From assembly GCA_030837445.1 (NCBI GenBank), contig JAUPKM010000075.1:1-36833 (forward strand): DNA of 36,833 nucleotides, written 5' to 3'. Shown one piece after another: positions 9,470-32,038 of this stretch. The notes below the pieces were generated by a model. The model did not search any database. It was not told the DNA's origin and worked only from the letters and a program-made list of their open reading frames with translations. The DNA comes from Actinomycetota bacterium. GTDB lineage: Bacteria; Actinomycetota; Actinomycetes; S36-B12; UBA10799. Within the stretch, counting starts at the first letter, position 1; each line of letters begins with the position of its first letter. The translations under genes and the position numbers were made by a program.

Positions 9470-9678
9470 CTGATCGGAGGTGCCTGCCAGGCCTGGCGCG
9501 GGCGGCAGGGGGGGGCGGTCGCCCGCACCAGGGGATTCGTGGCATTCACCGATCAACGGCCGTACCGTGAACCCAACCGGGAACCAAACCGGACAACCAG
9601 GGCATGCCTGCCGCACCGCTGCCGCACTGTCGTTGCACCTATGGCCCTGGCCTGGGACAACATCGGTAGGGAGGTGGA

Positions 9679-10044
9679 ATGGGCAAGCGAATCCAGCTCG
9701 CGCAACGCCGCAAGTCCGTCGGCTGCAGCCAGGAGCAGCTCGCCGAGCGCCTCGGCGTCGACCGCTCGACCGTCGCCCGCTGGGAAGCCGGCGACACCGA
9801 GCCGCTCCCGTGGCTTCGCCCCAAGCTGGCCCGCATCCTCCAGGTCTCCCGCGACCAGCTCGACGCCTACCTCGACGAAGCCACGCTCACCCCGACCAAG
9901 GACGACGATCGCCTCGCCAACACCGTCCGTCATCCCGAGGCCGTTGACCTGGCCGCTGTCCACGGGCTGCGCGACAACCTCGACTCCCTCGACCGGGCCT
10001 ACGAGATCGCGCCGTCCAGCTCTCTCCTGGCCGAGACCGGCGCC
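9679..10044 (+). pseudogene. 5' fragment of an XRE-family regulator (HTH plus linker only)
   Basis: MGKRIQLAQRRKSVGCSQEQLAERLGVDRSTVARWEAGDTEP is an XRE HTH. Similarity to the usual actinobacterial XRE-TPR regulators ends at ...SSLLAETGA (10044). The open frame then runs out of frame through the next gene up to 10677. Confidence 0.6.
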
Positions 10045-10081
10045 TGTCCCTGCTCGCCTCGAGCTGACGAAGGGAACGCCG

Positions 10082-10807
10082 ATGACCCCGACGAACATCG
10101 ACCGAGCCAAGGACGCCGTCCGCAACCAGATCTGGGACGCGCTGGCCCGTGCCCAGGTGGTGCCGCCCGACGTCCACGGGCAATATTCCCCGACTTCGAC
10201 GGCGCCCACGCCACAGCAGACCGGCTCGCCGAGTTGCCCGTCTGGAAGAACGCCCGCCTCCTCGATCCCGGACACCTGACCGTCGCACCGGAGGAGGCGG
10301 CCGCTCACCAGACCGCCATGCAGATCGGCCAGCCCATCGATCTCGACCAGATGCAGCCCGTCGACCTGGTCGTCTGCGGCAGCGTCGCCGTCGATCGACG
10401 CGGCGCGCGGATCGGCAAGGGCGCCGGCTACTCCGACCTCGAAGTCGCCCTCCTCACCGAAGCCGGCCTGCTCACCGTCTCCACCACCATCGTGACCATC
10501 GTTCACGCCCTCCAAGTCGTCGAGTACGACCTGCCCGAGACCGACCACGACTTTCAGTGTCGACCTCATTGTCACCCCGGACGACGTCATCTCCTGCGGG
10601 CCGTCCCGCCGCCCTGTGGGTCTGTACTGGGACGAATTGGACCCAGAGACGGTTGCTGTCATCCCGGTGCTTCGTAGCTTGAGCGCATCGCATCGAGGGC
10701 TTCCAACTTCCCGAGGTGGTGAGCGTCGTGGGCCAGCGCTGGTGGATGGGCCGGATGTCTCTGGATCAAGAGGAAGCAAGCACGCCGATGAGATGGACAG
10801 GGACTAG
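10082..10807 (+). pseudogene. 5-formyltetrahydrofolate cyclo-ligase family gene with two compensating frameshifts
   Basis: The N-terminus MTPTNIDRAKDAVRNQIWDALARAQVVPPDVHG lies in one frame. The middle ...IFPDFDGAHATADRLAELPVWKNAR...PVDLVVCGSVAVDRRGARIGKGAGYSDLEVALLTEAGL...HALQVVEYDLPETDHDF lies in the frame of ORF 9679-10677. The C-terminal part FSVDLIVTPDDVISCGPSRRPVGLYWDELDPETVAVIPVLRSL is back in the first frame. The switches are at about 10181-10183 and at the T3 run 10552-10554. The 3' tail overlaps the convergent 786-aa gene. Confidence 0.65.
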
Positions 10808-13126
10808 ATGTTCGGCCGGGTCGACGTCCATTACTGGGTGCTCGGCAATCGCATCGAGCAGGTCGGCGATGCGCACGCCAAGGTCGGCATCAACGACGCT
10901 GTCCCTTGCCCGGCCTGCGACCGTCTCCATCTGCCCGGCGAGCCACGCTCCTAGCTTGCGGTGCACGCTGTGCAGCGTCCGCAGCGCCCACGCGACCCGT
11001 TCGGCCTCCGCCAACAGCGCGTCGTCGTTGACCGCGCGGGCGAAGCGGGCAACGTCAGCGCCGTCGGCAGGGCCGTCGACAGTGGCCCGCATCCAATGCC
11101 CGACCGCACTGGCGGTAGTGACCGTCGTTCCGGTCATCCGGTCCAGGATCTGCTGCTGCGTCAGGCCGCTGTCGCGGGCCGCCGCAGCGCGAGCGTGCCA
11201 GAAGTCCACCAGCATGCGCAGCGCCGCGTACTCCGTCCGCTCGGACAGCTTCTCGGCCAACGCCACTCGCAGGTCGGTGCGGGCGCCCCGGTCGACGAGC
11301 AGAAGCACGTCGCCGCTCTGCAACGCTTTCGCTGCGACCTGGGACAGGGTTGGGCCCCGGCGCCGGGTCACGAGCACGTTCGCCGGAAGCCAAAGCACTC
11401 GAGGACCGTCGGAGTCCTCCAGATGAACCGCGATCGCCAGCACATCATTGTCGATGCTGGTTTGCCCGCGGACGGACAGGGTGTCCGGGTCGTCCTCGGA
11501 GGCGGCGATGACCGCGCGTAGAACCCCAGTCACGTCCACGGCGAACGGGTCCCACGCCGCATCGTCCGCGCCAGCCAACTCGTCGGCGGCCACGGGCCGT
11601 AGGAAGCCACCGTCGACAATCCGGACTGCGGCCGCCGGATCGGGCTCGACTAGGCCGCAACCCGCAGTCACGCCCAGCACCGCAGCTGACACAGCGAAGG
11701 CCTCCATCCGCAGTTGCACCATCCGTGCCCTGGCCGCAACCGCTTGCCTCACCGCGCGGCGCCCTTCCATCGGCCCGCACGTCAACTGCAGCACCGCCGG
11801 TGCGGGCGGCAACGCCAGCAGCCCGGACTGGCCGCGCGGCAGCGTCCCCACGACGGCCACCGGCACGCCCGGATCCACGGTGCCACGCGCTGCGGCCATC
11901 ACTGTCTGCACCGCCACCGTCCGCTCCCAGCCGAGCGGGGTCCGCTGCGACTCCGCAAGGGCCGTTGTGACCGCGGCGGCTGCGGTCGCACCGCGCACCA
12001 GCAGCGTCGCCCGCTCCCCTGCCTCGACCCTGGCTGTGACCCAGTCGACGAGCTGGCCGGTCCGCGGCTGCTCAGTCGCTGCGCAGAGTGCGTCGGCGAG
12101 CGCGTCTGCAAACCTCAGCCATACGTCCCGGCTGCTGATCGTGTGCTCGGCATAGCCGCGGGCCGTTTCGACCAAGGCCCCGAGCCGCACCCGATACGGG
12201 TTCGTCCCGGCAAACCGGTCGTAAACGTCCGGACGGACCGGGGTTGACGCAGCCGCATGGAAGGCCGTCCAGGCCCATCGCAGCCCGACGGGCTCAACAT
12301 CCGCGGAACTTACCAACTGGCCCGCCGCCTTCCAGAGCTCGTCGACCGCCGAATCAAGCGCTCCATCAGATCGCGGCACGACAATGTCGACCACAGCGGA
12401 GCCGGTGGCCTGCAACTGCTGCACATTGGCGAGCATCGCCCCCGCGTCGGCCCTGCGGGGCACTGCGGCTGGCCCCGTCAGCATCGGCAGGCAAGCGGCG
12501 TCCCATGCCCACACCACCCCTCCGGCACCGCGAACCGCGTCCAAGGCGGTGTCGTATGGGTCGCCGGTCAGGTAGATGACCGGTACCCGGCGCCCGATCT
12601 GCTGTAGCACTGCGGTGAGTTCGTCAGCCGTGGCTGCTCCGGCCGCAATGATGACGCCTTCGAGCCGCTCAAGCAGCGGGAGTAGCCGCGCGATCCGCCC
12701 GGTCAGGTACACCCGGCCGCCGGCGTCCAGCTTCGGCCGGCCAATTACCTGCGGATACCCGGCCTCGGTCATCGCTGCGCGGGGTACGAAGTCAACCAGG
12801 CGTTGCTCCCCGAACGCCAGCTCGTCGTACAGGTCTCGGTCGGCCAGCCGCACTGATGCGACCCCGATATGAGGGTTCAGCCTGCCGCGGTGCAGCGCGG
12901 CCGTGACGACCGCGGACGCGGCTAGCACTACCGGCGCCGCAGTGACGACTGCCGGCACCACTACCGCCAACGGTATTCGGGCGGCCATCGCGGCGTCTGC
13001 AACCCGCAGCAGTTCGACGTCCAGCTCTGTCGGGGCGAACGGCAGCGGCTGGCCGCCGTCCCTTCCACGCGTCAACAGCCCGGACATGACGCAATCGCTC
13101 AGCCCGCGAGTACCGGCAACGCTCAT
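10766..13126 (-). CDS. 786-aa protein of unknown function, divergent partner of the helicase/DUF1998 operon
   Basis: Uninterrupted 2361-nt ORF with an ATG start and Ala/Val/Leu/Arg-rich globular-looking sequence. I see no Walker A, DEAH, HKD, SAM-binding or nuclease motif. Its size and position next to a DrmA/DrmB-like pair recall DrmE, but I cannot verify that. Confidence 0.75.
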   Translation of the reverse strand: MSVAGTRGLSDCVMSGLLTRGRDGGQPLPFAPTELDVELLRVADAAMAARIPLAVVVPAVVTAAPVVLAASAVVTAALHRGRLNPHIGVASVRLADRDLYDELAFGEQRLVDFVPRAAMTEAGYPQVIGRPKLDAGGRVYLTGRIARLLPLLERLEGVIIAAGAATADELTAVLQQIGRRVPVIYLTGDPYDTALDAVRGAGGVVWAWDAACLPMLTGPAAVPRRADAGAMLANVQQLQATGSAVVDIVVPRSDGALDSAVDELWKAAGQLVSSADVEPVGLRWAWTAFHAAASTPVRPDVYDRFAGTNPYRVRLGALVETARGYAEHTISSRDVWLRFADALADALCAATEQPRTGQLVDWVTARVEAGERATLLVRGATAAAAVTTALAESQRTPLGWERTVAVQTVMAAARGTVDPGVPVAVVGTLPRGQSGLLALPPAPAVLQLTCGPMEGRRAVRQAVAARARMVQLRMEAFAVSAAVLGVTAGCGLVEPDPAAAVRIVDGGFLRPVAADELAGADDAAWDPFAVDVTGVLRAVIAASEDDPDTLSVRGQTSIDNDVLAIAVHLEDSDGPRVLWLPANVLVTRRRGPTLSQVAAKALQSGDVLLLVDRGARTDLRVALAEKLSERTEYAALRMLVDFWHARAAAARDSGLTQQQILDRMTGTTVTTASAVGHWMRATVDGPADGADVARFARAVNDDALLAEAERVAWALRTLHSVHRKLGAWLAGQMETVAGRARDSVVDADLGVRIADLLDAIAEHPVMDVDPAEHLVPVHLIGVLASS

Positions 13127-13446
13127 GAGCCGGAACGATAGACCGGCCTAGACTGGCGTCGATCAGCCATTCGAGATCGAGTCTGTCGTATTAAACCCAA
13201 AATCGGTGATCTTCGCTTCACTGAGGCCTAAGATCAGGCTTGCATGGGGTGCCTTCCTTCGTTTCGGGTCTCCAGGCGCCGGATTGTGGCAGACCCTCCG
13301 AGTATTGCAACTCTTGGATTTAGGCAACAAGCTCCATCATCTGCTCTGTCGTACTTGGGTCGTACGGTGAGTCTCACATCAGCGCGGGCTGACCCAGTCG
13401 GCAGACTTTCGGACGGCGGCAGGTCCACACGGGGAGGACGCGGGTA
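13127..13446. promoter_or_regulatory. Divergent intergenic/promoter region, visibly lower GC than its flanks
   Basis: 320 bp between the two divergent start codons. It has AT-rich patches unusual for this DNA (GTATTAAACCCAAAATCGG, TTGGATTTAGGCAACAAG). GGGGAGGA lies 9 nt upstream of the GTG at 13447. No promoter hexamers can be assigned with confidence. Confidence 0.5.
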
Positions 13447-16400
13447 GTGAGCAGGAGCGAGCATGGCGCGGACCGCGACACTGATGACATCAGGAGCATG
13501 GCGGCCACCGACGACAGCGGCCAGCACGGGGCCTCGCACACCGTCGGTTCAGCTCTGACTGAGCAGGAGAGAGAGACGCTTCGCCGTGCAAAGATTTGCC
13601 GTGCCGCGGCTGGGTGCCTCACCCAGTCCGACCTGGTCAGCGAGTTGCCGCGGCTAAGCGGCAGCGACGTTCGGTGGGTGCGGCGGCGGACCCAGATCCG
13701 TCCGAACGCTCCGACTGCGGCGCTGGCTCGCGCGGTGCGCACCATATTGGTCCGCTCGGACGAGAAGCGGACCGCGTCGATCCTGCACGACTGCCTGCAC
13801 TACGGCGTGTTGTCTACCAATGTCGCCTCGCAACTGCCGATCCCCGAAATGGCCGCGCTGCTGGCCGGTGACATCGACGGCATGATCAGCCTCGGTGACC
13901 AGCCGATCTACCAGACGCTGCTTGACGCGGAGGAGTTCGGCACCACGCGGACCGCGCGGGTCTCGGCGTGGGCGTCGATGATCTGCATAGGCCATTCCGC
14001 CGACATCATGGCACTGGCCTGGCTGGTCGCCGACCTGCCGGAGGAGTGGCCAGATGCGCAGCGGCAGGCGCTGGTCAATGTGTGGGAGAGTGTCCGGTTC
14101 CGGACGCCGGACCTGCCAGAGAAGCCGATGCGTTTCGAGGACCTCGTCGACGTGGTCATCGACGCTGACGCCGAGATGCACAGCGACAAGTTCGAGGACG
14201 TCGACGAGCCCGCCATCCTCGAAAGGCCCGCCACAGCACACGCGAGCGTGACGGAGCCGTGCGGCGATGTCTCATGCCCCGCCACGGCTGACGCGCTGGC
14301 TGCGGGAGGTGGCGCCGCATCCGAGCTGGCCGAGCTCGACATGCCGTCGCTGCAGCGCGTGCTCGATGACTTAGAGCAGCTCCGCTGCCACTTGGAGGAC
14401 GAGGCGGCGCCCGCCCTCGCCGAAGCCGTCGCTGCGGGGCGTCCCCCGGCGGAGGCACATGTCGTCGCGGTCACCGTCTACACCCGACAGCTCACCTCGG
14501 TGTTCAACGCGCTTGCGAGGCTCACGGGGACTGCACGGCCGGAGACGCTTGCCGACGCACGGCACGCGGTCGAGGATGCGCTGGCTGCCACCATGGAGGC
14601 GGACCAGACGGCCGCCCGGCTGGACCGGGTCCGGCAAGTGGCGACGCTGCACGGGCCGGAGTACGTCGCAGCGGCCGTAGCCCGAGTCGCGGCCCTCGCC
14701 GCCGGCGTTGACGACACGACCTCGCCGGAGACACTGACCGGGCTGGAGGCGCTGTGCGACATCATCGACCTCGCTGGCGGTGACCCGCGCCGGGCCGTCG
14801 AACTCGGCGAGGTCGTCACCCGGAATCTGCCGGCCGCGATCCCGCTTCTCATGTTTGCGACCACCGCCGACGCCGTCACCTACACCGCAACACCCGCAGG
14901 CGCCGACTTCCCCGGCGAACCCGCCGCTGCCGGGCTCATCGCCACCCAGCTGGCGGCAGTGCCCGGTGAGGTCCAGGCGACCGCGAAAGCGCACGCCGCC
15001 GCGGCTGAGCCTGTCGATGCAGAATCCGTCGCCGAACCGGCCGGGGTAATGACACCCGCGCTCTACACCGACGTGCCACTCGCCGTTACGGCCGAGGAAA
15101 CCACTTCTCCAACGCCTGGCCGTGCTGTCGACGAGACCACTCCGGATGATGCGGTCGCGGGGCTCGACACCGACGCGGAGCCGGACCTCGAGAACGTCCT
15201 CGCCGGGCTCGACCTCACCGTTCCGCTCCCCGCCGCCCGGCAGCCCAGCCACGCAGCCCCCGAGAAGACCACCGAGCCCAGGCCGTCCGCCGGTGATACA
15301 CCCGACGTCGACACGTCCGACGCCAGCCACGTGGACATGCTCTACACCGATCTGCTCGACCACGACCAGTACGCGCTTGCGTACTGGCTCACCACCGCCG
15401 AAAGCGCTCCGGCCGCAGTGAGCACGGCGTATCGACTCGCCGCGCACGCTGCCGCGATCAAGACTTCCACCGGCTCAAATGCGGCGGCATTCACCGCCGC
15501 CGTCACCAACCTCGACGCCGGCACCGTCCGGGACATGCCCGACACCCAGATGCTGATCTACGCCGCCGCCGTCCGCGCCGGGTTGCTGTCCCCGTCGGCC
15601 GGCGCGGCAGGGCCGTTGCGCGACATCGCGACCAGCATTCCCCGCTACGGCAAGGCGGTCGAGGAGCTTCACGACGCGCTGCTCACGGCGATCTACAGCG
15701 GCATCTACCTCACCCCGTGCAGCATCAACGCTGTGGCCGAAGCCGCGGAAGCCGACCAGGTCCTGCAAACCCTCACGGCCGTCGCCAAAGAGCTACTCGC
15801 CAGGCCCCGTACCATCCTCTATGCCCCGGCGACCGAACTCTGGCAGACCTGGATGGCGCCAGACGGCTACCTCGGCCGCCCGCTGAGCATCATCGCAGCC
15901 GGGCAAATGGCCCCGTACGCTGTCGCGCTCATCCGCGACCGCATCGCGAACCTCCGTTCCCGGTCTACGCTCGAAGCGACCATCGACCGCGACACGCCCC
16001 GCAGCACTGGCAAGCGCAGCAAGCGGATAGAGTCCCGAGCCCGAGAGAAGCTGCTCGCCTGGACCGGCGAGGTCACCGAGCTGCTGTCGAACTGGATCAC
16101 CGCCTTCGAGAATCTCACCGGCCCCAACGCCGATTCCTGGATGAACGACCCGATGACCGAGCTGCGCACGCGGGTCGTCGCCGTTCGCGACCAGGCCCTG
16201 ACCGAGCTCGCCCGCCGCAGTGAAACCGACGTCGAAGCGCGTCACGCCGCCCACAAAGCCGGACTGCGGCTCCTCACCGACGCCCTCGACCTGCTCGTCG
16301 GCACTGCCGCAGTCCCCGTCGGGCCCGAGGTGTCGGCCGATCGGGTCCTCGGCGGACCGCTCACCGGTGCCGCCAACCTGCCGCTCACCGGCGCTGGCGA

Positions 16401-19400
16401 ACCCGCCTGGCCGATTACCGTCGACGACGTCCTCGCCGCGGTCCGGACCGCCCAGGCTGGCTCGGCCGGGTGGCGTGCCGCATACGAACAGCGGGCCGCC
16501 CGCCACGACCATGTCGGCACGCAGCTGCTCATCGAGCACGTGCGCTCCACCGACGCACAGCTGGCCGCTGTGCTCACCGACGCCCGGGATCAGGCCATCG
16601 CCACCTCCACCGCCAAACTCGACACCGTAGTCACGGCCCTGGACACCCGGATCGACTCCGACCGGCTCTTCAGCCGCGTCACCGTTGAGGAATGGACCGA
16701 CCTGTCCACTCGGGTCCGCGCCCACCAGGCTGGCCCGCGAGGTACGCGCCGCGACTACGGCGCCATGTTCGCTGACCTCGCCGCCATCGAGGGTGACCGG
16801 GCCGCCGCCGTCGGGCGCCGCATCGCCGCAGCCCGCGCCGCCCTCGACACGACCGGCATGGCTTCGGATGACGCAGACCGGATCCAGCGCTGCCTCGACG
16901 ACGGCGACCTCATCACTGCCGCCGAGTACATCGAGACGCTCGCCACCGACAGGAAACTGCCTGGCCCTCGCGACACGGTCGACCACGTGCGCCGGTTCTT
17001 CCCCGCGTTCTGCGATGTGTTCGCATCCCGCTGGAGCGCCAGCAACAGCACCCACCCGCTGCTGCGCGACCTGCAGACGGCGCTGCCGGCTGGCCGCGTC
17101 CCCAGCGACCCGGCACTGGCCGGGCTGCTCGCCGACGCCGGCATCGACCTCGCGGACCTGACCCGCGGCAAGACCATCGCCGAACGGGTCGACCACTGGA
17201 ACAAGCTCGCGGTCAGCCGCACGTTCGACGCCCGCATCGGCAACGTCAAGGCCGTCCTTGAGCAGATCGGGTTCATCTTCGACAAGTCGACCAATCCCCC
17301 TGTCAAGCGCGGCCAGGGCGGCGGGCGCGGCTCGTGGCTAGACCTGCACGGCGTGCGCGCCACCGCCGGCAAAGCAATCATTCCGGCGTTCGGGACGGCG
17401 ATGAGCCCGTCCGGAGACACGCTGCGGCTGCTCGCGGTGTGGAAGAGCCCGACGCCAGCCGAGCTGGTGGAGATGCTGCGCAGCGAACCGACCGACCAGT
17501 CGATCGTCCTGCTGTACTTCGGCTCCCTCGACGCCGCCGCCCGCCGCGAACTGGCCCGCCAGTTCCGTAGCGGCCGCAAGCTGGCCCCGACCGCCATCAT
17601 CGACGACGCCGCGATGGCCTACCTGGCCTGCCAGCCGACCCCCGGCCGGGACGTGACAATGGCGGTCACGCTGCCGTTCACGTTCTCGTCCCCGTTCACC
17701 CCAGACGTACCAGGTGTCAACGTGCCGCAGGAGATGTTCTACGGCCGGGCCGAGGAACGGGACAAGGTCGTCGACATGATGGGCCCGTGCGTCGTGTACG
17801 GCGGTCGGCAGCTGGGCAAATCCGCGTTACTGAGGGCCGCCGAGCGCGAGTTCGACGACGGCAGCACCCGGCACGCGATCTACGAGTCGATCTTCCACAT
17901 CGGCAAGTCTGCCCCGGCCGAAGCGGTCTGGACGACGCTGTGGCCGCGGCTGGCGGACAAGGGCATCGTCCCGGATACTGCCCCGGCCAGCGACGTCGCG
18001 GTCACGCTCACCGGGCACGTCGCCGACTGGGTGACCGCCCGCCCGAGCCGGCAACTGCTGCTCCTGCTGGACGAGTCCGACTCGTTTCTCGACGCCGACG
18101 CGAACGCCGCCGGCGGGATGTTCACGCAGGTCGTGCAGTTCAAGTTGCTGATGGAACGGACCCACCGCGCGGTCAAGATCGTTTTCGCCGGTCTGCACCA
18201 AACCGCCCGCTTCGAACGGCTCGCCAACCACCCGCTCGCGCACTTCGGCGAGCCGGTCTGCGTCGGGCCCCTCGCGCCGCAGGCCGCGTACGAACTGCTC
18301 ATCCGGCCGCTAGACGCACTCGGGTTCCGCTTCGCAGACACCGACCAGGCCGCCCGGGTGTTGGCCCTGACGAACAACCAGCCAGCGCTGATCCAGCTGT
18401 TCGCTGCCAGACTGCTGCGCAACCTGCAGGGCGCCCCGATTCTCGACGACGCGCCGCCGCAGACCATCGCCGCCGACGACGTCGAGCAGGTGTGGGCCGA
18501 CCCGACGCTGCGGCGCCAGTTCCGCAAGCGATTCGACTGGACCCTCGACCTGGACCCGCACTACAAGGTGATCGCGTACAGCGTTGCGCAGAACGCGCAC
18601 GCTGCCGGCGTCGACGCCGCGATGACCCCCGGCGTGCTGCGCGCCGAGTGCGAGCAGTGGTGGCCCGCAGGCTTCGCCGCCGAGGACATCCGCGCCGGCG
18701 AGTTCCGTGCCCTGCTCGACGAGTCTGTCGACCTCGGGGTGCTGTCGGTGACCGAGCGCGGCTACCGGCTGCGGACCCCGAACGTCCTCGACCTGCTTGG
18801 CAACCGCGACGAGGTCGACGAGGTCCTCGAGCGGGCCGCGTCCTTCGAGGCACCGGAGTCGTTCGACGGATCACTGATGCGGCCGGTGTACGGCGCCGGC
18901 CCGACCCGGGCGCCGCTAACCGCGCAGCAGATCGCCGACTTGCTCGCCCCCCGCCGCCAGGTCCGCCTGCTGGTCGGGTCTAGCGCGCTCGACGTCGACC
19001 GGTGCCTGGCGGTGCTAGAGAAGGAGAACGGGAACGCCGCGACCGGGAATCGGAGAGCGGTACTGGTGCGGGCCACGCCTGGCGGGCTGGAGAACAAGTG
19101 CCGCAGCATGCCGCTGCACAGCGCCGGGCACCACGCCGTCGTCCTGGTCGACATGAAGGACGCCACCGCCGAGCAGGCGCTGCACGTGTGGCGGCGGGCG
19201 CGGGCGCTGATCGCGTCGCACACCGGCGGCACCCTCGGGATCGTGCAAGTGAGCGGCCCGGCGCAGGCGGCCGCATGGCCGGTCGCGGCGCGGGAGTCGG
19301 ACACTTCCTCCGGCCTGACCGAGCTGCGCCGCTACGACGACACCGACCTGCGGCTGTGGTTCGCGCAGGAGTCGCTGCCATTCCAGGACGCCGCGTCCCG

Positions 19401-19842: not shown

Positions 19843-22016
19843 GCCGCACCCTGCCGCAGCTCGTTGAGCAGCTCGTCCTCGACGCGGCCCGGCACGCGGT
19901 CCAGGCGCCAGCGCTGGCCGGGACCGACCCGGACCGATTCGCGCAGGCGAACCGGCGCGGCATGCTACAGCTGATCGCGCGCCACCGGCCGCTGCGCGAG
20001 GAGCTCGCCGCCCGGTACGTCGACGAGCAGGGGCTGCAGCAGCCGAGCCTGCGAGCCTTGTTCGCCGGTGACGCGGCCGTGGCCGAGGCGGCCGCGACCA
20101 CCCTCACGGACCCGGCTCGCGTGCGCCGTCTGGCCCGCGCCTGGGTGCGCCGCAACGTGCACACACCGACCGGTACCGCCACCATCGCTGCCGCGACGGC
20201 GGGGCCAACGGCGGTGGACGGGCGGCGGGACGCGCGGATCGCCCGGAGGATCGCCGACCTGCGGGAGGCCCGCGACGTCGCCCGTGCCCAGCGCAACATC
20301 GCGCAGGTCGAGGCACGCGACTTGGCCCAGCAGCTGGCCGCCACCCATGGGGACCTGGAGGAGGGTGGCACCGTCATCGAGGCGCTGCGCGCCGAGCTAA
20401 ACCTTGAGCGGGAGGCGGCCGCAGCCCGGTCTGCCGACCTGGTCCCCGCCGCCCGGGTCTTCGCCGCCGCGGCCGCCCCGTCCAGCATCGGCGACACCGA
20501 CGACCCACGTGCCCGTGAGCTCGCCGACGACGCCACCGCCGCCCCGTCCGACGCAAGGCTCGCTGCGGCTCTCGCCACCGCCGGGGTGGCACCGGCCGCG
20601 TTTCGGACGGTGCTGGCCATGTTGCTCGCTCCGCCGCCGGCCCCATCGCCCGCGGTGGCGACGCCGCGGGAGATCGCGTTGACCCCGCTCGGCGGCGGCA
20701 CCGACATCGGCGGGTCGGCGATGCTGGTCTCTGCCGGCGACGTGCGGATCCTCGTCGACGCCGGGATGCGGCCTAAGCGCCGCATCGACGACGCCGGTCC
20801 GCCGCACATCGACGTCGTCCGCCACGGCGGCCGGCTGGACGCGATCGTGATCACGCACGCGCACAACGACCATGCCGGGTACGTACCGGCGCTGACGGCC
20901 GAGTTCGGGAACGTTCCGGTGTTCTGCAGCGCCGAAACCGCGGCGTTGCTGCCGACGATGTGGCAGGACTCAGTCAAGGTGTTCGACCGGACCCGCAGCG
21001 ACTACGTCGAGGCAGACGAGCCGCCCGCCGAGCCGCCGTACACGCGAACGCAGGTGTTCGCGGCACAGAGGCGTCTCGAGCCGCTCGCGCTTGGCCGGCC
21101 CGTCGAGGTGGCCGACGGCGTCACCATCGAGCTGTTCACGGCGGGGCACATCCTCGGCGCCGCCGGCGTCGTCGTCACTGCCGGCGACGGCCGGGTCACC
21201 GTGACCGGCGACGTGTCCACCCTCGCGCAGCTGTCCGTGTCTGGTCTGATCGTGCCGGACGCGGCCCGCGGCTCGGATCTGCTCGTCATCGAGTCGACGT
21301 ACTGTGGCCGCCGCAGCACCAACAGGGACCTGGAGGTGGAGAAGTTCATCAACATGGTCGCCGACACCGTGTTCGGCGGAGGGCGGGTGCTGGTGCCGGC
21401 GTTCGCGCTCGGACGTGCTCAGGAGGTCGCGCTCACGCTGCGGGACCGGCTGCCGGACGTGCCAGTCCTCATCGACGGGCTGGCCCGGCATGTGTCGTGG
21501 ATCTACGAGCAGGAGACCGCAGGGGCCGATCGGCCGCTGCGGATCTTCGGTGGCGGGGTGCAGGAGGTCCGCGATGCCAATCGGCCATACCTGCTCAAGA
21601 GCTTTCGCAAGGGTGTGGTCGTGACGACCTCCGGGATGCTCGCCGCCGGGCCGGCGGTCCGGTGGGCGCGGGAGATCCTGCCGGACCCGGACTCGGCGCT
21701 GCTGGTCGCCGGCTATCAGGACGAGGACTCCCCCGGAGCGGAACTGCTCGAGCTGTCCAACGGCGGCCACGGCACCGGCCGGGGCAAGCCGCGGACGTTC
21801 CGCCTCGACGACCACGACGTCGCGGTGAACGCGCGGGTGGAACAGTTCGGTCTGTCGGCGCACGCCGACCGGCGCGGCCTGTCTGCGATCATCAACGAAG
21901 TCGCGCCGCACGAGGTGATGCTGGTGCACGGCATGGCACGCAAGCAGCGGGACTTCGCGGACAACCTGACCCGGCGCGGTTATTCCGTCGCGCCAACCCG
22001 GCACTGGCAGCGGTGA
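19839..22016 (+). CDS. Metallo-beta-lactamase fold, beta-CASP-type nuclease with a ~280-aa coiled-coil-like N-terminal extension
   Basis: GTG start overlaps the stop of the giant gene (GTGA, 19839-19842). MBL motifs: GGSAMLVSAGDVRILVDAG and ITHAHNDHAGYVP (HxHxDH at 20856-20873). Beta-CASP-like blocks: LLVIESTYCG, VLVPAFALGRAQE, GLSAHAD and VMLVHG. The N-terminal 280 aa are Ala/Arg/Glu-rich heptad-like sequence. Confidence 0.85.
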   Translation: MSRTLPQLVEQLVLDAARHAVQAPALAGTDPDRFAQANRRGMLQLIARHRPLREELAARYVDEQGLQQPSLRALFAGDAAVAEAAATTLTDPARVRRLARAWVRRNVHTPTGTATIAAATAGPTAVDGRRDARIARRIADLREARDVARAQRNIAQVEARDLAQQLAATHGDLEEGGTVIEALRAELNLEREAAAARSADLVPAARVFAAAAAPSSIGDTDDPRARELADDATAAPSDARLAAALATAGVAPAAFRTVLAMLLAPPPAPSPAVATPREIALTPLGGGTDIGGSAMLVSAGDVRILVDAGMRPKRRIDDAGPPHIDVVRHGGRLDAIVITHAHNDHAGYVPALTAEFGNVPVFCSAETAALLPTMWQDSVKVFDRTRSDYVEADEPPAEPPYTRTQVFAAQRRLEPLALGRPVEVADGVTIELFTAGHILGAAGVVVTAGDGRVTVTGDVSTLAQLSVSGLIVPDAARGSDLLVIESTYCGRRSTNRDLEVEKFINMVADTVFGGGRVLVPAFALGRAQEVALTLRDRLPDVPVLIDGLARHVSWIYEQETAGADRPLRIFGGGVQEVRDANRPYLLKSFRKGVVVTTSGMLAAGPAVRWAREILPDPDSALLVAGYQDEDSPGAELLELSNGGHGTGRGKPRTFRLDDHDVAVNARVEQFGLSAHADRRGLSAIINEVAPHEVMLVHGMARKQRDFADNLTRRGYSVAPTRHWQR

Positions 22017-22134
22017 GTTCCCCACCGCCGGACCTGCACTCCGGCCATCCCATCCCGACCCACGACCGCCGTTCGAGCCCTTCGGCGGGCGGTCGCGGCC
22101 CGGCGCCGCGCGCCGCGACCTACAGGAGCACACC

Positions 22135-25100
22135 TTGACGGTCTCATCCGCCCCAGCCCAAGGCGCCGCCGTCGCGCCGGCCCTGCCCGCCGCGACGGCG
22201 GCGCAGAGGTACGACGCGCTGCTGGGCAGCCTCGCCCGCCGCGTCGTCGACACCGCCGCCGGCACTCTCATCCCGGCCGGAACGCGGTTGCCTGACCCGC
22301 CCGCGCAACAGCGGCTATGGCTCGGCATGCTCGCCAGTGCCCCGAAGCTCATGGCCGAAGCCGCAAACGGCTACACATACGGCGAGCGGCTTGTTCCGCC
22401 TGCGCAGGGGTTCACGTTCCGGGTGCCGGCGCTGCCGGTCACGCTCGAGTTCACCGTGTCTGCGGCCGCGTATGTCGCCCTGCACCCCACCATGGGCGAG
22501 CAGAATGCGGCGGTGACCGCCGCCGCCGACCCGGGCACCGAGCCCGGCCCGGTCGGCCTCCGCCCGGGCATAGGCCGCGCAGCCCCGGATGCGGGCCGCG
22601 GGCATCCACTGGCCACGGTGTGGACGAAGGTCGCCATCGACCCAGTCACCATCACCGTGCCCCTCACCATCGACACCGTCCGGGCCGGAGAGGATGAGCT
22701 CGCCGCCGCGCTGCGGTCCGCGGTCCGGCCGCCAGCCGGCGCGGAACTGCACCGGCCGCGACGGCTGTCCCCGGCCCCCGCCGGCAACCTGCCCCGCCCG
22801 GACGACATGCTGAACGCGACCACGTGGGCCCGGTACTGCACGGCGAACCTCCTCGACGCCGCCGACGTCCTACCGCCAGAGTTCCGCGCCGCCGTCGAGT
22901 TTGACATCACTCCCGGTGACGGGTACGTCGAGATCCTCGCCACGGTCGTCAACCTCACCCCGGCACCGGACCAGCAGACCGTGGACGGCACACACGCGTA
23001 CCAGACGCCGTACCTGAATACGCATCTGTACGAGGTGCAGCTGATCTGTGCGCTCGATGCGCCGCTGGTGCCATACCAGCTCGAACAGGTCCAGCAGTCC
23101 TACCGGTATGAGCGGGCCGTCCCCGCGCTAGGGCACGCTTGCGCCGTCGACGTGACCCGCGCCGGCGGTCATACTCGGCTGGCGACCATGTACGCCGCCG
23201 AGCAAGCCACTGCTCGGGTGCACCCACGCCGGCATGTCGCGCTCCCAGACGGGACCGTGACCACCCTCGATACCTCGTTCCAGGCCCTGATCGCCGACCC
23301 GATCGCCGCAGTGACTGCGCTCGTCGACGCGCACCGCGCCTGGGTCGACACGGAATGGAGCGTCGCGGCTCTCGACGCCCGCGCCGGTGCCCGCGGCTGG
23401 GACGTCTCCGCCCGCGCGGACGCCGACGCCGACGCCGTCACCGCCCACGACGAGGTCGACTGGGTCGCTGCCGGGTTGGACCTGCTCCGGACCGACCCAC
23501 AGGTCCGGGACGCATTCGTACTCGCGAACCGGGCCGTCGCCGCAGCAGCGAACCGAAGCTACGACGCTTGGTTCCCGTTCCAGATCGCGTGGCTGGTCGG
23601 CTGCCTGCCCAGCATGGTCGACCCAGCCGGGCACCCGGACGTCGAGATCGTCTGGTTCGCCACCGGCGGCGGGAAGTCCGAGGCGTACCTCGGACTTATG
23701 CTCACCACCCTGTTCTATGCTCGGCTCACCGGCGTCACGGCTGGCGCGCAGGTGTGGGCCCGGTTCCCGCTGCGGCTGCTCGCGCTGCAGCAGACCGAAC
23801 GGTTCACCGCGATGGTGCTGCACGCCGAGCTGCTGCGCCGCGACCACCCGGACATCGCTGTCGGCGACCCATTCGGCGTCGGGTACTTCGTCGGCGGAAC
23901 CAACACGCCGAACCGACTGCAGGCGCCCGACCCGACCAACCCGTACTACCGCGGTCAGGACCCGCACTCCGCCGCGACCGCTGAAGCATGCCGGATCCTC
24001 GCCGACTGCCCGCTGTGCCGTCAGCCGCTCGAGGTCGGCTTCGACGAGCTGTCCTGGACGATGCAGCACCGCTGCCGCAACGCCAGCTGTCGGATGACGG
24101 GCGTGCTGCCGGTGTGGGGCATCGACGACGAGATCTATCGGCACGCCCCAGCCGTGTTGGTCGGCACTGTCGACAAGCTCGCCCAGCTCGGCCAGTCGAA
24201 GGAGTTCCAGGTCCTCCTTGGGCGTGCCCACTCCCGTTGCCCGCAACACGGCTACACCGGCCACCCGACCTGGTGCGCGGTGTTCGGGTGCAAGCAGAGC
24301 CGACAACCCATCGCGGCCGGGTTCGGGCACGTCCGCCTCGAGATCGCCGACGAGCTGCATCTGCTCGACGAGTCCCTCGGAGCGCTCGACGGCATGTACG
24401 AGACGCTGCTGCAGGCCATCAGTGAAGACCTCGGCAACCCGCCGATACAGATTGTTGGCGCGACCGCGACCATCGAGGGCTACAAGCATCAGGTGCAGCA
24501 CCTGTATCGCCGCGATGCGCGCCGGTTCCCTGTCAACGGCCCGGACGTCGGGGAGACGTTCTGGTCCACCACCACCGCCGACGAGCCGCTGCGCCGCTAC
24601 CTCGGCGTCCGACCCCGGTCGATTACCATGGTTACCGCGACCCGCGAGGTCGCACTCACCCACGGCGGCTGGCTCGCCGACCTGCTCACCGACCCGGCCG
24701 CCGTGCTCGACGAAGCAGGCCTGGACGCGGCGGACCCGGCGCTACGCGACGAAGCCCACGCCGCTGGCCGCGACCTGTACGAGGTATTCGTCGCGTACTG
24801 CCTGCGCAACGAGGACCTGACCAGCTTCACGCGCGACCCGGAGGTCCGGGCACTACTCGGAAGCCAGCTGAACTTGGCCGTCATCAACGGTGACGCGGAA
24901 CCGACCGCGGTCCGGCGCGCTGTTGCCCGGTTGACTAACCCGCCCGCCGCCGCCGAGGACCGGGTCACGATGATCGCCGCGACTAAGGCGATCGGGCATG
25001 GGTTCGACGTTGGGAGGCTCGGCGTCATGACCGTGATGGGCACCCCAACATCCGCGGCCGAGATCATCCAGGCCTCCGCCCGGGTCGGGCGCCGTTGGCC

Positions 25101-25599
25101 TGGCCTGGTCATCAACGTGATCAACCCGACCCGGGACCGAGACGCTTCTGTATTCCGGTACTACGCCGACTGGATTCGGTTCCTCGACCGGCTTGTGAAC
25201 AAGGTCCCGGTGAACCGGGAGTCGCTGCCGGTGCTGCGTCGGGTTCTGTCCGGCGGGCTGATGGCATGGCTTCTGCAGGTCCATGACCGGGACTGGCTCA
25301 CCGGCGCCCAGCGTCGCAAAACGCTCGCCGATTCGACTGCGTTCGCGGCCGCCGTGACGGCCGGGTTCGTCGACCGGGCCCTGCTCATCGACAACCTGTC
25401 CCGTGGGTTCGGGATCCACCCAGACAGCGTGTACCACCAGCTGCACCGGGACGCGATCGCGGCGTGGGTCGACGACCGACTCGCCGGGCTACCGATGCAG
25501 GCCGAGCCCGGCAAACGGCTGCCGGACCTACTCACCCCGCCGGTGCCGCGGTCCCTGCGCGACGTCGAGGAACCGATCACCATTTACGCCGATCTGTGA
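22135..25599 (+). CDS. DrmA-like superfamily-2 DEAH-box helicase
   Basis: TTG start 7 nt after AGGAG. Walker A FATGGGKSEAYLG (23659-23679). DEAH-type box ADELHLLDESLG (DELH at 24349-24360). Helicase C-terminal motifs TKAIGHGFDV and QASARVGRR. Cys-rich inserts lie between motifs I and II (CPLCRQP...CRNASC, CPQHG...CAVFGC). A ~500-aa N-terminal region is unassigned. Confidence 0.85.
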   Translation: MTVSSAPAQGAAVAPALPAATAAQRYDALLGSLARRVVDTAAGTLIPAGTRLPDPPAQQRLWLGMLASAPKLMAEAANGYTYGERLVPPAQGFTFRVPALPVTLEFTVSAAAYVALHPTMGEQNAAVTAAADPGTEPGPVGLRPGIGRAAPDAGRGHPLATVWTKVAIDPVTITVPLTIDTVRAGEDELAAALRSAVRPPAGAELHRPRRLSPAPAGNLPRPDDMLNATTWARYCTANLLDAADVLPPEFRAAVEFDITPGDGYVEILATVVNLTPAPDQQTVDGTHAYQTPYLNTHLYEVQLICALDAPLVPYQLEQVQQSYRYERAVPALGHACAVDVTRAGGHTRLATMYAAEQATARVHPRRHVALPDGTVTTLDTSFQALIADPIAAVTALVDAHRAWVDTEWSVAALDARAGARGWDVSARADADADAVTAHDEVDWVAAGLDLLRTDPQVRDAFVLANRAVAAAANRSYDAWFPFQIAWLVGCLPSMVDPAGHPDVEIVWFATGGGKSEAYLGLMLTTLFYARLTGVTAGAQVWARFPLRLLALQQTERFTAMVLHAELLRRDHPDIAVGDPFGVGYFVGGTNTPNRLQAPDPTNPYYRGQDPHSAATAEACRILADCPLCRQPLEVGFDELSWTMQHRCRNASCRMTGVLPVWGIDDEIYRHAPAVLVGTVDKLAQLGQSKEFQVLLGRAHSRCPQHGYTGHPTWCAVFGCKQSRQPIAAGFGHVRLEIADELHLLDESLGALDGMYETLLQAISEDLGNPPIQIVGATATIEGYKHQVQHLYRRDARRFPVNGPDVGETFWSTTTADEPLRRYLGVRPRSITMVTATREVALTHGGWLADLLTDPAAVLDEAGLDAADPALRDEAHAAGRDLYEVFVAYCLRNEDLTSFTRDPEVRALLGSQLNLAVINGDAEPTAVRRAVARLTNPPAAAEDRVTMIAATKAIGHGFDVGRLGVMTVMGTPTSAAEIIQASARVGRRWPGLVINVINPTRDRDASVFRYYADWIRFLDRLVNKVPVNRESLPVLRRVLSGGLMAWLLQVHDRDWLTGAQRRKTLADSTAFAAAVTAGFVDRALLIDNLSRGFGIHPDSVYHQLHRDAIAAWVDDRLAGLPMQAEPGKRLPDLLTPPVPRSLRDVEEPITIYADL

Positions 25600-25695
25600 C
25601 CCGCGCAGCCCGCCTTCCCCCGGTCCGCTGGCGCTCCCCCACCCAGCCCGACGCCCCCAACCTTGTGCCCGTCCTGCTCGAAGGAGACGCCTCCG

Positions 25696-27534
25696 ATGGC
25701 GCTCGAAACGCTCAACCGGACCAACATTCAGGCGCTATGGCGGTACATGCCCGGACAGCCGTACAACTTCGGCACGAAGGCAGCCGTCGTCGGCGAACCG
25801 CCGCGGCAAACCAGTCCGCTCGGCATCCCGGAGGGATGGGTGGAGGTGCAGCTTCGCCGTCTGATCCGCCCATTTGCCGAGGCCTCGTCGAACATACCGA
25901 ACAGCGGCCCAGAGCTCGACATCGTCGACCGGCGCCAGTATGAGCTGGTCCGTGCCGACGATCTACGCGCCGCCCGGTTCCCTAACACATACCTGTGCGC
26001 CGACTGTGGCGCGTTCCGGACTGCCCGCGCCAGCGACCGGGTTCCCGACTGCGCTACGCACGGGCCGATGGAGCAGTTCACGTTCGTCGAGATCCACGAG
26101 TGCGGACATCTCGGCCAGCTGCGGCCGCCGCAGTGCGCGAACAACTGCAGAGCAGCGATGCGGCTATTCAATACGAAGTCGTTCAACACCGGCCGCTGGT
26201 ACTGGTCCTGCTCGCGGTGCGGCACTCGCTCCGAACGGCCAATCGCCCAGTGGTGCGAATGCCGGCACGGAAAGGTAACCGTCACCCGGGTCCCGCAGAC
26301 CTCGGCGTACTACCCGCAGCAAATCACCGTGATCAACCCGCCGACCCGGGAGACGTACGCGGCGCTCACGCACGAGCACACCCACGCTGCAGCGCTCGCC
26401 CAGGCGCTCGGGATCCTGCCGCCCGGCCTGGACGGGCTGCGGACCGCGGCTGGCGGCGTGTCCAACGACGCGGTCGCCCAGTTCGAGGCGCTCGCCGCGA
26501 CGCTCGGCTGGAAGCCCGGCAACCCGCTACACGACGCTGGCCTGGCCGACGCTCAGGCCAAGGTTGGCAGCACTCCGGTGTGGCGAGACGACGTCGACGC
26601 GCTCGGGCTGGAGCCGGAGCGGCTGGACCTCCTCGGCGAGGAATGCCTGCAGCTATCGCTCGCCCGGTCGGCGAACGCGATGAGCGTCGAGGACCTGCTC
26701 GCCGAAGCCGGCGGCGGGCCGCTCGCGGCGGCGTACGGCACGTACCGGGCACTGTTCGACCGGTACGGGCTGGCGGATGTGACGCTGCTGCGACAACTGC
26801 CGGTCGCATTCCTTGTCGCTGGATACACCCGTGTCTCGCCGCGGGCGAGTACGGTGAACCGGCGCGGTGACACCGTCACTACCCGGTTCCGGTTCTTCCC
26901 AGGCACCCGCAACGGTAAGTTTCCCATGTACGGGGTGCGGACCGAGACCGAAGGACTGCTATTTCGGATCGATCCGCTGAAGATCGTGACCTGGCTGGTC
27001 GATTCCGGCATCGTCGACGACCCCGGGGCGACCGACTTCGCGGCCGCGCAACGCTGGTTGCTCACCGTGTGCGACCCGGTTACTGACCTGTTTACCGCGC
27101 CGGAGAACCGGATCAGCCGTGCGGTGCTCGGGCTGACGCACTCGTTCGCGCACCGTGCGATGAAGGCGCTCGCTGCTCGGTGCGGGCTGAACGTCGACTC
27201 TCTGGCCGAGTTCCTGTTCCCAGCCAATGGGGCTTTCCTCATCTACGCCAACACCCGTAGCGAGTTCATCCTCGGTGGGTTGGAGCACGTGTTCCGGTTC
27301 GACCTGTTCGACGCTCTGACCGAGTTGGCTGCGGAGTCGCGATGCGTGTTCGATCCGCCGTGCCGGCAAGCGTTCGGCGGGGCGTGCGCGGCGTGTCTGT
27401 ACGTGTCGGAGATGGCGTGCGCTCGGTTCAACACGGTCTTGGATCGAAACCTGCTGTTCGGGACGATGCCACCGGTCGGCGGTGCGGCGCTGGGCCCGGA
27501 AGCGGCCGCGTGGCGCGGTTTCTGGACACCCTGA
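25696..27534 (+). CDS. DrmB-like DUF1998 (MrfA-type Zn-binding) domain protein
   Basis: I prefer the ATG at 25696, 8 nt after AAGGAGA, over the GTG at 25663. The C-terminus CVFDPPCRQAFGGACAACLYVSEMACARFNTVLDRN (27343-27450) is the four-Cys DUF1998 signature as I recall it. The N-terminal third holds further zinc-ribbon-like pairs (CADCG...C..H, CSRCG...CEC). Confidence 0.8.
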   Translation: MALETLNRTNIQALWRYMPGQPYNFGTKAAVVGEPPRQTSPLGIPEGWVEVQLRRLIRPFAEASSNIPNSGPELDIVDRRQYELVRADDLRAARFPNTYLCADCGAFRTARASDRVPDCATHGPMEQFTFVEIHECGHLGQLRPPQCANNCRAAMRLFNTKSFNTGRWYWSCSRCGTRSERPIAQWCECRHGKVTVTRVPQTSAYYPQQITVINPPTRETYAALTHEHTHAAALAQALGILPPGLDGLRTAAGGVSNDAVAQFEALAATLGWKPGNPLHDAGLADAQAKVGSTPVWRDDVDALGLEPERLDLLGEECLQLSLARSANAMSVEDLLAEAGGGPLAAAYGTYRALFDRYGLADVTLLRQLPVAFLVAGYTRVSPRASTVNRRGDTVTTRFRFFPGTRNGKFPMYGVRTETEGLLFRIDPLKIVTWLVDSGIVDDPGATDFAAAQRWLLTVCDPVTDLFTAPENRISRAVLGLTHSFAHRAMKALAARCGLNVDSLAEFLFPANGAFLIYANTRSEFILGGLEHVFRFDLFDALTELAAESRCVFDPPCRQAFGGACAACLYVSEMACARFNTVLDRNLLFGTMPPVGGAALGPEAAAWRGFWTP

Positions 27535-27617
27535 CTCCTCCGCTGTCCGGGCTGCTCATACAGGCCGGTGACCCGGTTGCGGTCGCGCACGGGCTGGCCA
27601 CCTCCGCCGCGGCCAGC

Positions 27618-27684
27618 GCGTCATGAGTGTCAAGTACCGGGTTATATGGAGACCATCAAACCCGGTACTTGACACTCATGACGC
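27618..27684. repeat. Perfect 26-bp inverted repeat with a 15-nt spacer
   Basis: GCGTCATGAGTGTCAAGTACCGGGTT (27618-27643) is the exact reverse complement of 27659-27684. The spacer is ATATGGAGACCATCA. It lies 84 bp after the DUF1998 gene stop and 120 bp before the ISL3 end. There is no U-tract, and the arms are less GC-rich than the surroundings. Confidence 0.9.
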
Positions 27685-27852
27685 ACTGCGGGGGTCCGAC
27701 ATCCGCTGGATCCTGGTGTGGGGGAGAAATCGTGACAGTTCCGCCCACCCAGCGCATCCCGCACCGCGGGCAGACCATCCGACACGTGTCCGAGCCGTCG
27801 ACGAATTCGGTTCTGGCGCTGATCTTGTGGTGCGGTGGGACGAGGCTTGGGG

Positions 27853-29438: not shown

Positions 29439-29474
29439 CAGGCGTAACCGCGAACCACCAGGTGTAACCGCGAG
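29428..29474 (+). repeat. 20-bp tandem repeat (2.3 units) at the transposase start
   Basis: CCGCGAACCACCAGGCGTAA, then CCGCGAACCACCAGGTGTAA, then the partial unit CCGCGAG. The first unit contains the GTG start codon region of the transposase on the opposite strand. Confidence 0.8.
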
Positions 29475-31798: not shown

Positions 31799-32038
31799 GT
31801 CCGGCAGCCTAAAGACGATCTCCGGACACGGTCATCGGTCGCCGGACATACGTCTGCAGGACCCCAGCGCACGCCCCGGCCCGGCACCGATGCCAGTTGA
31901 CCGCCGGGGACCGGATGCTCCTGGCCGACACCCCGGTGGGAGGTGGCGACGGTCACCGCGTACGTGACCGTCGTCGCCCGGTCCATGGTCGCGCTATCGT
32001 CGCTGAAGGAGCTGGACATCGTGGAGGTGGGATCAGCC

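Follow-up and report, generated by a model that had tools for sequence, protein, structure and literature searches.

A DrmE-DrmA-DrmB locus linked to a giant ATPase and a beta-CASP nuclease: a candidate methyltransferase-less variant of class-2 DISARM

What kind of system is encoded by a DISARM-type helicase core that comes with a giant ATPase and a nuclease, and with no methyltransferase? This question is raised by a five-gene locus on JAUPKM010000075.1, one 36,833-bp contig of a metagenome-assembled genome (MAG) annotated 'Actinomycetota bacterium'; the whole of this contig was analysed and is called the window here. How DISARM discriminates self from non-self and how it destroys phages are still open questions, and methylation explains only part of its target discrimination (PMC9142583). 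The locus encodes DrmE, DrmA and DrmB together with a 2131-aa ATPase (the giant protein) and a beta-CASP nuclease, the last two being referred to jointly as the pair. We favor, with moderate confidence, the reading that it is a so far undescribed variant of class-2 DISARM which has no methyltransferase and carries an ATPase-nuclease module that is likewise undescribed, and that the two modules are functionally integrated. Its main features are as follows.

10766-13126, minus strand: drmE, 786 aa, divergent from the giant gene
13127-13446, no strand: divergent intergenic region, 320 bp, bidirectional promoters presumed
13447-19842, plus strand: giant ATPase gene, 2131 aa
15244-17226, plus strand: all-alpha domain of the giant protein, aa 600-1260, AlphaFold2 (AF2) model
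17164-19839, plus strand: ATPase part of the giant protein, aa 1240-2131, AF2 model with pLDDT 79
19839-22016, plus strand: beta-CASP nuclease gene, 725 aa
22135-25599, plus strand: drmA, 1154 aa
25696-27534, plus strand: drmB from ATG (612 aa), with an alternative TTG start at 25663 (623 aa)

All five large open reading frames (ORFs) are intact, including the one of 6.4 kb. The stop codon of the giant gene and the GTG start of the beta-CASP gene share the GTGA at 19839-19842, this overlap takes the form RTGA in 7/7 pair-bearing loci, and the two genes are translationally coupled. Gaps of 118 bp and 96 bp (the latter measured to ATG 25696) separate the beta-CASP gene from drmA and drmA from drmB, respectively, and Shine-Dalgarno-like sequences precede each start (GGAGG before 13447, GGAGGG before 19839, AGGAG before 22135 and AAGGAGA before 25696). 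For drmB, ATG 25696 is the likelier start because relatives align from residue 12 of the version beginning at TTG 25663. The intergenic region 13127-13446 has a GC content of 57.5% vs ~70% elsewhere; a sigma-70 consensus scan of it gave no match, this consensus being uninformative for an actinomycete, and no terminator was detected in the short gap between the pair and drmA, where promoter and terminator scans are uninformative at such GC. A preliminary description of the window, made from the sequence alone, had reported these ORFs, the GTGA overlap, the 118- and 96-bp gaps, the Shine-Dalgarno sites and the low-GC divergent region, all of which were reproduced.

The identity of the core is set by the divergent 786-aa ORF, which belongs to the DrmE family (Pfam PF24957 DrmE_C at 1.1e-11, 45.2 bits vs a cut-off of 27, aa 584-732). 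Class-2 DISARM has DrmE as its hallmark accessory gene, and since this ORF is DrmE, the core is of the class-2 DISARM type (DrmE/DrmA/DrmB). The preliminary description could fit the five-gene combination to no named system; with the DrmE_C match, the core instead becomes class-2 DISARM-like. The protein shares 35-80% identity with its counterparts in related loci, matches NCBIfam DrmE_fam at 8.5e-8, under its cut-off, has no sequence relative in the PDB, and belongs to a DrmE clade that the PADLOC DrmE models miss. The 1154-aa helicase is DrmA: it matches PADLOC DrmA at 4.5e-94 and NCBIfam DISARM_DrmAS at 8.7e-107 (358 bits, under the equivalog cut-off of 950), and carries FATGGGKSEAYLG at aa 508 (Walker A K514), ADELHLLDE at 738 (DELH 739-742) and QASARVGRR at 979. 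It belongs to an actinobacterial clade of ~40 clusters at >=50% identity. The downstream protein is DrmB (PADLOC DrmB at 5e-39, aa 369-601; NCBIfam DrmB_fam at 1.3e-18, under the cut-off), with a Cys-rich tail ending in NTVLDRN (aa 590). The DrmA-DrmB core proposed earlier is thus upheld by the PADLOC matches, with which the NCBIfam DISARM models agree, and our motif check recovered the reported helicase motifs and the Cys-rich NTVLDRN tail as well as HAHNDH in the beta-CASP protein. The Pfam domains anticipated from the sequence came out in part: DEAD and Helicase_C were found in DrmA and Lactamase_B, Beta-Casp and RMMBL in the nuclease, while DUF1998 (PF09369) gave no match to DrmB even at E<=10 and AAA/ATPase_2 matches to the giant protein were only weak.

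Three regions make up the giant protein: a variable low-complexity N-terminus (aa 1 to ~600), a conserved all-alpha region (~600-1260) and a tandem ORC/Cdc6-like AAA+ region (~1400-2131). At threshold it has no Pfam, PADLOC or NCBIfam match, nor do 23 representatives of its family match PADLOC or NCBIfam; weak Pfam matches to AAA_22, AAA_16, ATPase_2 and nSTAND1 recur among family members. The AF2 model of aa 600-1260 consists entirely of helices (pLDDT 89.3, pTM 0.73), and a Foldseek search of it against the PDB returned no match (best E 0.49, TM ~0.1) and no Rossmann or methyltransferase fold. For aa 1240-2131, the top Foldseek matches are PABY2304 (2qen), SSO1545 (2fna), ORC1/ORC2/Cdc6 and the plant NLR NRC2, with E values of 4e-8 to 7e-6 for 2qen, 2fna, 2v1u, 1w5s and 8rfh. 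The giant P-loop protein of the preliminary description is accordingly predicted, from the AF2 model and Foldseek, to have an ATPase fold of the ORC/Cdc6/ATPase_2/STAND type. Motifs suggest that the first of the two ATPase modules is active (Walker A GGRQLGKS, including K1458; Walker B LLLLDESD, including D1542/E1543; and TNNQPALIQLF); the second is degenerate (TGGWPKLL at ~1992), with winged-helix-like elements. A methyltransferase hidden within aa 600-2131 was considered and rejected after Pfam, NCBIfam, a PDB profile search, the two AF2 models with Foldseek, and motif searches were all negative, and Pfam and motifs revealed no methyltransferase in aa 1-600.

Its partner, the 725-aa protein, combines an N-terminal domain (aa 1-275, nt 19839-20663) with an MBL/beta-CASP/RMMBL part (aa 276-716; MBL, metallo-beta-lactamase) in which HAHNDH occupies residues 340-345. 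Pfam finds no match in aa 1-275, which by the same models are not KH domains. NCBIfam aCPSF1 and Cas14 match at 4e-60 and 2e-55, both under cut-off, and the significant PDB relatives are aCPSF1/FttA, INTS11, CPSF73, TTHA0252, Cas14 and RNase J; on this sequence evidence, the protein is assigned to the RNA-cleaving CPSF73/FttA/INTS11/Cas14 branch. The MBL/beta-CASP family proposed earlier thus stands on Pfam, NCBIfam and PDB matches, while a role as a DNA nuclease should not be assumed, because all of its nearest relatives of solved structure are beta-CASP enzymes that cleave RNA. Around the window protein, the beta-CASP subfamily comprises ~80 full-length clusters (Nocardia, Amycolatopsis, Micromonospora and other genera) vs ~40 clusters in the DrmA clade.

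The survey for conserved co-occurrence proposed in the preliminary description found that six independent loci have all five genes, arranged in four different orders, so that the linkage of the pair to DrmE, DrmA and DrmB is recurrent. In the following lines, E, A, B and C stand for DrmE, DrmA, DrmB and DrmC, G for the giant ATPase and β for the beta-CASP nuclease; arrows give direction, and L numbers designate the loci surveyed.

Window (MAG), L005 (metagenome) and L009 (complete Kutzneria sp. CA-103260, CP073318.1): ←E G→ β→ A→ B→
L003/L004 (metagenomes): ←β ←G E→ A→ B→
L171 (Kribbella): E→ ←β ←G A→ B→ C→
L172 (Kribbella): E→ A→ B→ ←β ←G

In two of these four orders, the pair sits between drmE and drmA, in opposite orientations. 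The Kribbella pairs are 34-38% identical to the window's pair and their DrmAs 61-70% identical to its DrmA, and, compared with them, the pair from Sphaerimonospora (L001), which has no Drm genes beside it, is nearer to that of the window. The DrmAs linked to pairs are 61-74% identical to the window's, yet these pairs fall into two divergent lineages. Together, these relationships imply that the association between pair and Drm genes has either arisen repeatedly or been long maintained, across deep divergence. At the 76 distant DrmA loci surveyed, no giant/beta-CASP pair was present; a metagenome scan with a DrmA profile added only three more close loci, which were short, and plasmid searches with the giant and beta-CASP proteins gave distant relatives only. 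As to defense context, a four-gene Wadjet system (DUF2397, DUF2398, SbcC-like, DUF2399; L009:15590-23447) directly follows the five-gene locus of Kutzneria and is oriented convergently to it, and the window itself holds AbiEii and PIN genes.

The absence of a methyltransferase was probed at several levels. None of the five proteins contains a [DNS]PP[YFW], FxGxG, PCQ or HxK(x)4D motif; Pfam found no methyltransferase in the likely ORFs of the 36.8-kb contig, tblastn with C5-methyltransferase queries gave no match, and there was no match in the window to SNF2 (DrmD) or N6_Mtase (DrmMI). Nor was a methyltransferase found in the five other pair-bearing loci (L005, L009, L003/L004, L171 and L172), and a methyltransferase motif scan of ORFs with high GC at third codon positions in the pair-bearing loci returned nothing. 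The earlier statement that no methyltransferase accompanies the genes therefore holds for the five proteins, the 36.8-kb contig and the five homologous loci. Sister loci of the same DrmA clade, with the canonical DrmE-A-B-(C) order and no giant/beta-CASP pair, whose DrmAs are 53-66% identical to the window's, present the complementary picture: a C5 methyltransferase occurs in 5/6 of them (L010, L011, L012, L013 and L173/L174; L014 has neither module) vs a methyltransferase in 0/6 pair-bearing loci (Fisher p=0.002, uncorrected for phylogeny). In these sister loci, the methyltransferase sits downstream of drmC and is usually accompanied by Vsr and an Eco29kI-type restriction endonuclease (REase). 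Pair-bearing and methyltransferase-bearing types interleave on the DrmA tree.

Where the locus ends, and what it has lost, can be read from its downstream edge, which holds three further features.

27510-27626, plus strand: drmC remnant, 38 codons
27614-27688, no strand: palindrome with 36-nt arms and a 3-nt loop, at the drmC breakpoint
27805-29636, minus strand: ISL3-family insertion sequence (IS), at the downstream edge of the locus

L005 is the closest relative of the window locus, with proteins 79-89% identical, and has a 279-aa gene overlapping the drmB stop that carries an HxK...GSxN motif and PADLOC DrmC matches. By tblastn, the window stub corresponds to the first 28 residues of this DrmC at 76% identity, and its 25-nt overlap with the drmB stop is the same as that of the intact gene in relatives. 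The drmC gene, of the phospholipase D (PLD) type, is intact in L005 and L171 (PADLOC DrmC matches) and absent in L009, L003 and L172; it belonged to the ancestral cassette, and its vestige downstream of drmB had escaped the preliminary description. DNA homology to the L005 drmC ends at 27620, inside the palindrome, whose arms are 92% complementary, which occurs once in the window, and which is possibly a footprint or a miniature element associated with the loss of drmC. We also considered whether the rest of drmC resumes beyond the ISL3 element; the only match (28% identity, E=7.8) led us to reject this. The ISL3 element is bounded by 25-nt terminal inverted repeats that match perfectly, and its transposase is frameshifted, lying in overlapping frames 27856-28386 and 28140-29528 (DDE_Tnp_ISL3, Zn_ribbon_ISL3); of the many frameshifted neighboring genes reported earlier, this transposase is the one verified case. 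The block common to the window and L005 is exactly 10764-27620, and because it is so sharply bounded, with unrelated flanks on either side, the gene set behaves as a cassette. In the order of events that we infer, this cassette probably derived from class-2 DISARM, with the pair taking the place of the usual cytosine-methyltransferase/restriction-modification (R-M) partner. Among the sister loci, the DrmE-A-B-C + C5 methyltransferase + Eco29kI-REase locus (L173:1-4944, L174:1-3121) directly adjoins TniQ and TniB, which suggests that it is carried on a Tn7-like element.

With DISARM class 2 of the Bacillus paralicheniformis type (DrmE-DrmA-DrmB-DrmC-DrmMII), the locus shares DrmE, a split DrmA and DrmB, and the drmC vestige. 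Unlike class 2, it lacks DrmMII and carries the giant and beta-CASP pair in or beside the operon, with drmE inverted in the window, and unlike those of canonical class 2, the window proteins score under the NCBIfam equivalog cut-offs. Owing to the missing methyltransferase and, in the window, also to the missing DrmC, the locus is not a canonical class-2 member. Class 1 uses DrmD (SNF2) and DrmMI (an N6-adenine methyltransferase), neither of which is in the window; its DrmAB from Serratia sp. SCBI, solved by cryo-EM, is a homologous helicase/DUF1998 pair and the sole mechanistic model available (PMC9142583). Identity of DrmA to distant DISARM loci is ~25-33%. Class-1 DrmAB has a trigger loop and an N-terminal EVE-like domain and recognizes DNA by its structure: the trigger loop mediates autoinhibition, single-stranded DNA (ssDNA) with a 5' overhang activates the complex, no nuclease activity was detected and DrmC is dispensable, and its authors note that 'other nucleases may be recruited' (PMC9142583). 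ARMADA, Druantia and other YprA-family systems likewise contain a YprA-like helicase and a DUF1998 module; unlike the present locus, ARMADA and Druantia fuse helicase, DUF1998 and nuclease, and ARMADA adds a PglX-like methyltransferase and a BrxHII-like helicase (10.1101/2025.09.15.676423). The survey that names ARMADA, BRIGADE and TALON cites 'many uncharacterized DISARM-like ... classes' in the DISARM clade, and its main text is silent on any DrmE, beta-CASP, MBL or STAND partner (10.1101/2025.09.15.676423). Our literature search for DISARM with a beta-CASP nuclease or giant ATPase, for a 'class 3' and for methyltransferase-less DISARM found no description of such an architecture.

The pair has its own resemblances. 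In AVAST/Avs type 1 and other STAND systems, a large ORC/NLR-like P-loop NTPase likewise stands beside an MBL-fold hydrolase, and by analogy this arrangement suggests a logic in which a sensor activates an effector. Differences from Avs are that the giant protein matches none of the Avs models of PADLOC and NCBIfam, that the beta-CASP protein scores 15 bits against Avs1a (cut-off 420), and that the ATPase of the giant is C-terminal, a tandem of an active-looking and a degenerate module preceded by a novel helical stretch of ~1,200 residues; a TPR-type sensor was not detected. CPSF73, aCPSF1 (FttA), INTS11 and Cas14 match the catalytic aa 276-716 of the nuclease at E 1e-40 to 1e-27 with HxHxDH in common, while its scores lie far under the equivalog cut-offs for aCPSF1 and Cas14 (188 bits vs 800 for Cas14), and the window has no cas genes and no repeat array of a type VII CRISPR-Cas system.

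Several observations weigh against functional integration of the two modules, and most of them would be expected if two independent systems, a methyltransferase-less DrmE/A/B(C) and an autonomous giant/beta-CASP pair, had come to lie side by side through island clustering and shared mobility. This main rival is possible, although we regard it as less likely. The pair stands alone in L001 and may therefore be autonomous; the giant family is huge, and its distant members take other partners, of ~780 aa or 401 aa; DrmEABC occurs without the pair, in L014 with neither module; the pair is not fixed in position or orientation with respect to the Drm genes; and the beta-CASP subfamily, by cluster number, exceeds the DrmA clade. 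The sister-locus methyltransferases, moreover, score best as ordinary type II methyltransferases with an Eco29kI-type REase of their own, so the 'replacement' may amount to two alternative neighbors in a defense island, and the exclusivity comes from a small sample (6 vs 5-6 loci) that is not phylogenetically independent. The RNase relatives of the nuclease are awkward for a simple DNA-degradation model, and our literature search found no experimental anti-phage protection for any member of the clade. Against independence, however, the pair lies between drmE and drmA in two arrangements and, in the window, L005 and L009, runs in the same direction as drmA and drmB, with only a short gap and no detectable terminator before drmA; two divergent pair lineages stand beside the same narrow DrmA clade, compared with 0/76 distant DrmA loci having the pair; and the exclusivity of pair and methyltransferase is perfect in the sample.

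An ordinary class-2 DISARM in decay, or one served by a drmMII in trans, would also lack a linked methyltransferase: drmMII could have been lost, like drmC, through IS rearrangement, with the pair as an unrelated insertion. We consider this improbable. It draws on the truncation of drmC at the palindrome beside ISL3, right after drmB, on the location of the sister methyltransferases downstream of drmC, and on the window being one 36.8-kb MAG contig, such that a methyltransferase may act from elsewhere in the genome; yet the methyltransferase-less arrangement recurs at unrelated flanks (Kutzneria, L003, L171 and L172), the five large ORFs are intact, and in L172 the pair occupies the expected place of the methyltransferase downstream of drmB. 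Far less probable still is a DNA-repair module of the MrfA/YprA type rather than an immune system, the alternative raised in the preliminary description. In its favor, the wider YprA helicase/DUF1998 family comprises the repair helicase MrfA as well as DrmA and DrmB (10.1101/2025.09.15.676423), and beta-CASP nucleases include DNA-repair enzymes. The fit is nonetheless poor, because the profiles that match best are the DISARM-specific ones (DrmA, DrmB and DrmE), the helicase and the DUF1998-type protein are encoded by separate genes, a hallmark of DISARM (10.1101/2025.09.15.676423), the window has no MrfB-like or DnaQ-like 3'-5' exonuclease, the beta-CASP protein matches RNA-processing enzymes and not SNM1/Artemis, and the cassette is patchy, mobile and located among defense genes.

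If the locus is an integrated, methyltransferase-less DISARM variant acting in defense, a hypothetical mechanism can be outlined by analogy with class-1 DrmAB. DrmA and DrmB would load on invading DNA via its structure (ssDNA or 5' overhangs) and not its methylation state, with DrmE as the class-2 accessory subunit of a DrmE/A/B assembly that recognizes invading DNA by structure. The giant ATPase could serve as an NTP-dependent sensor or scaffold whose helical N-terminal half provides a recognition or docking surface; it would either sense infection or dock on the Drm complex, thereby linking the modules physically or functionally, and release the coupled beta-CASP nuclease in an NTP-dependent manner. 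The licensing role that the preliminary description gave to the NTPase is likewise purely hypothetical. The nuclease might then supply the cleavage that DrmC does not reliably give. Candidate substrates are phage RNA or transcripts, the RNA of R-loops, or ssDNA; because the nuclease falls in the CPSF73/FttA clade, the substrate could be RNA rather than DNA. More tentatively, the locus may represent a third, methylation-independent DISARM class in which the giant ORC/STAND-like ATPase and the CPSF73/FttA-type nuclease take over the roles of self/non-self discrimination and cleavage. Since enzymes of this nuclease clade cut nascent RNA, such a system may be directed at phage transcription or at R-loop intermediates that the DrmAB helicase exposes rather than at plain degradation of DNA, and the giant family would then constitute a large unrecognized class of immune sensors or scaffolds. 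A lineage that repeatedly swapped its methyltransferase/R-M partner for an ATPase-gated nuclease would also offer a direct test of whether DrmEAB works without methylation and of where the nuclease activity comes from. The actinobacterial DrmE/DrmA/DrmB clade itself lies under the NCBIfam naming cut-offs and is missed by current defense-finder models.

The giant family reaches well beyond these loci. An exhaustive search via the ATPase region yields 3271 representatives at 50% identity, and at E<=1e-30 at least 1951 clusters at 50% identity, mostly of 1.9-2.3 kaa; a count of just 11 clusters, from a k-mer-limited homologue search, was thereby overturned. Distant giants are preceded by a conserved protein of ~750-793 aa, with no beta-CASP gene after them (L002:7357-16180, L006:7492-16171, L008:2206-11200 and L175:4973-13188; sources Streptomyces, a Streptantibioticus megaplasmid and a metagenome), and a giant-family member in a JGI contig is partnered by a 401-aa protein. 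We rejected the idea that the ~750-793-aa partner is a cryptic DrmE, as it has no BLASTP similarity to DrmE and no Pfam or PADLOC match; the giant and the ~780-aa protein form a second uncharacterized two-gene module built on the same ATPase. In L002 this module adjoins McrBC, PIN and N6 methyltransferase genes. On an Azospirillum ramasamyi plasmid (NZ_CP029830.1; L176, 2750-9961), a 2403-aa 'RNaseH domain-containing' protein contains the ATPase module at 27-29% identity, and its operon also encodes a second RNaseH-domain protein and an AAA ATPase. Evidently, different phyla have combined this module with other effector domains. These ATPases of ~2,000 residues, with their interchangeable partner genes, are absent from PADLOC and missed by current defense-finder models.

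In the wider window, Pfam matches among the likely ORFs of both flanks include a CAAX protease, GNAT, EcsC, DegT, GFO/IDH, a helix-turn-helix (HTH)/5-formyltetrahydrofolate cyclo-ligase (5-FTHF-ligase) protein and the ISL3 transposase, as well as an M4 peptidase, AbiEii, PIN and cold-shock-domain proteins. In the ORF beside drmE (9670-10677, plus strand), an N-terminal Xre-type HTH is unusually joined to a partial 5-formyltetrahydrofolate cyclo-ligase domain; this ORF is not conserved beside drmE in L005. The right flank (31901-33042, 35353-35919 and 36047-36833) encodes a toxin of the AbiEii type, preceded by a partner ORF, as well as a PIN protein and a protein with three cold-shock domains, which is consistent with a defense or toxin-antitoxin island; the cold-shock protein has a weak S1CSD-TOTE-2 match. 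The sole RNA gene detected by Rfam is a tRNA-Leu(GAG) at 2016-2100 on the minus strand, with no integrase seen nearby. Finally, a direct repeat of ~170 nt, 93-95% identical between its copies at 5085-5262 and 29912-30090 (spaced 24,827 bp), brackets the Drm/giant locus together with the DegT, GFO/IDH and HTH genes and ISL3. It holds tandem CCTGTGGGATCA, has no Rfam match, and possibly represents the ends of an island, a repeated regulatory element or an RNA element.

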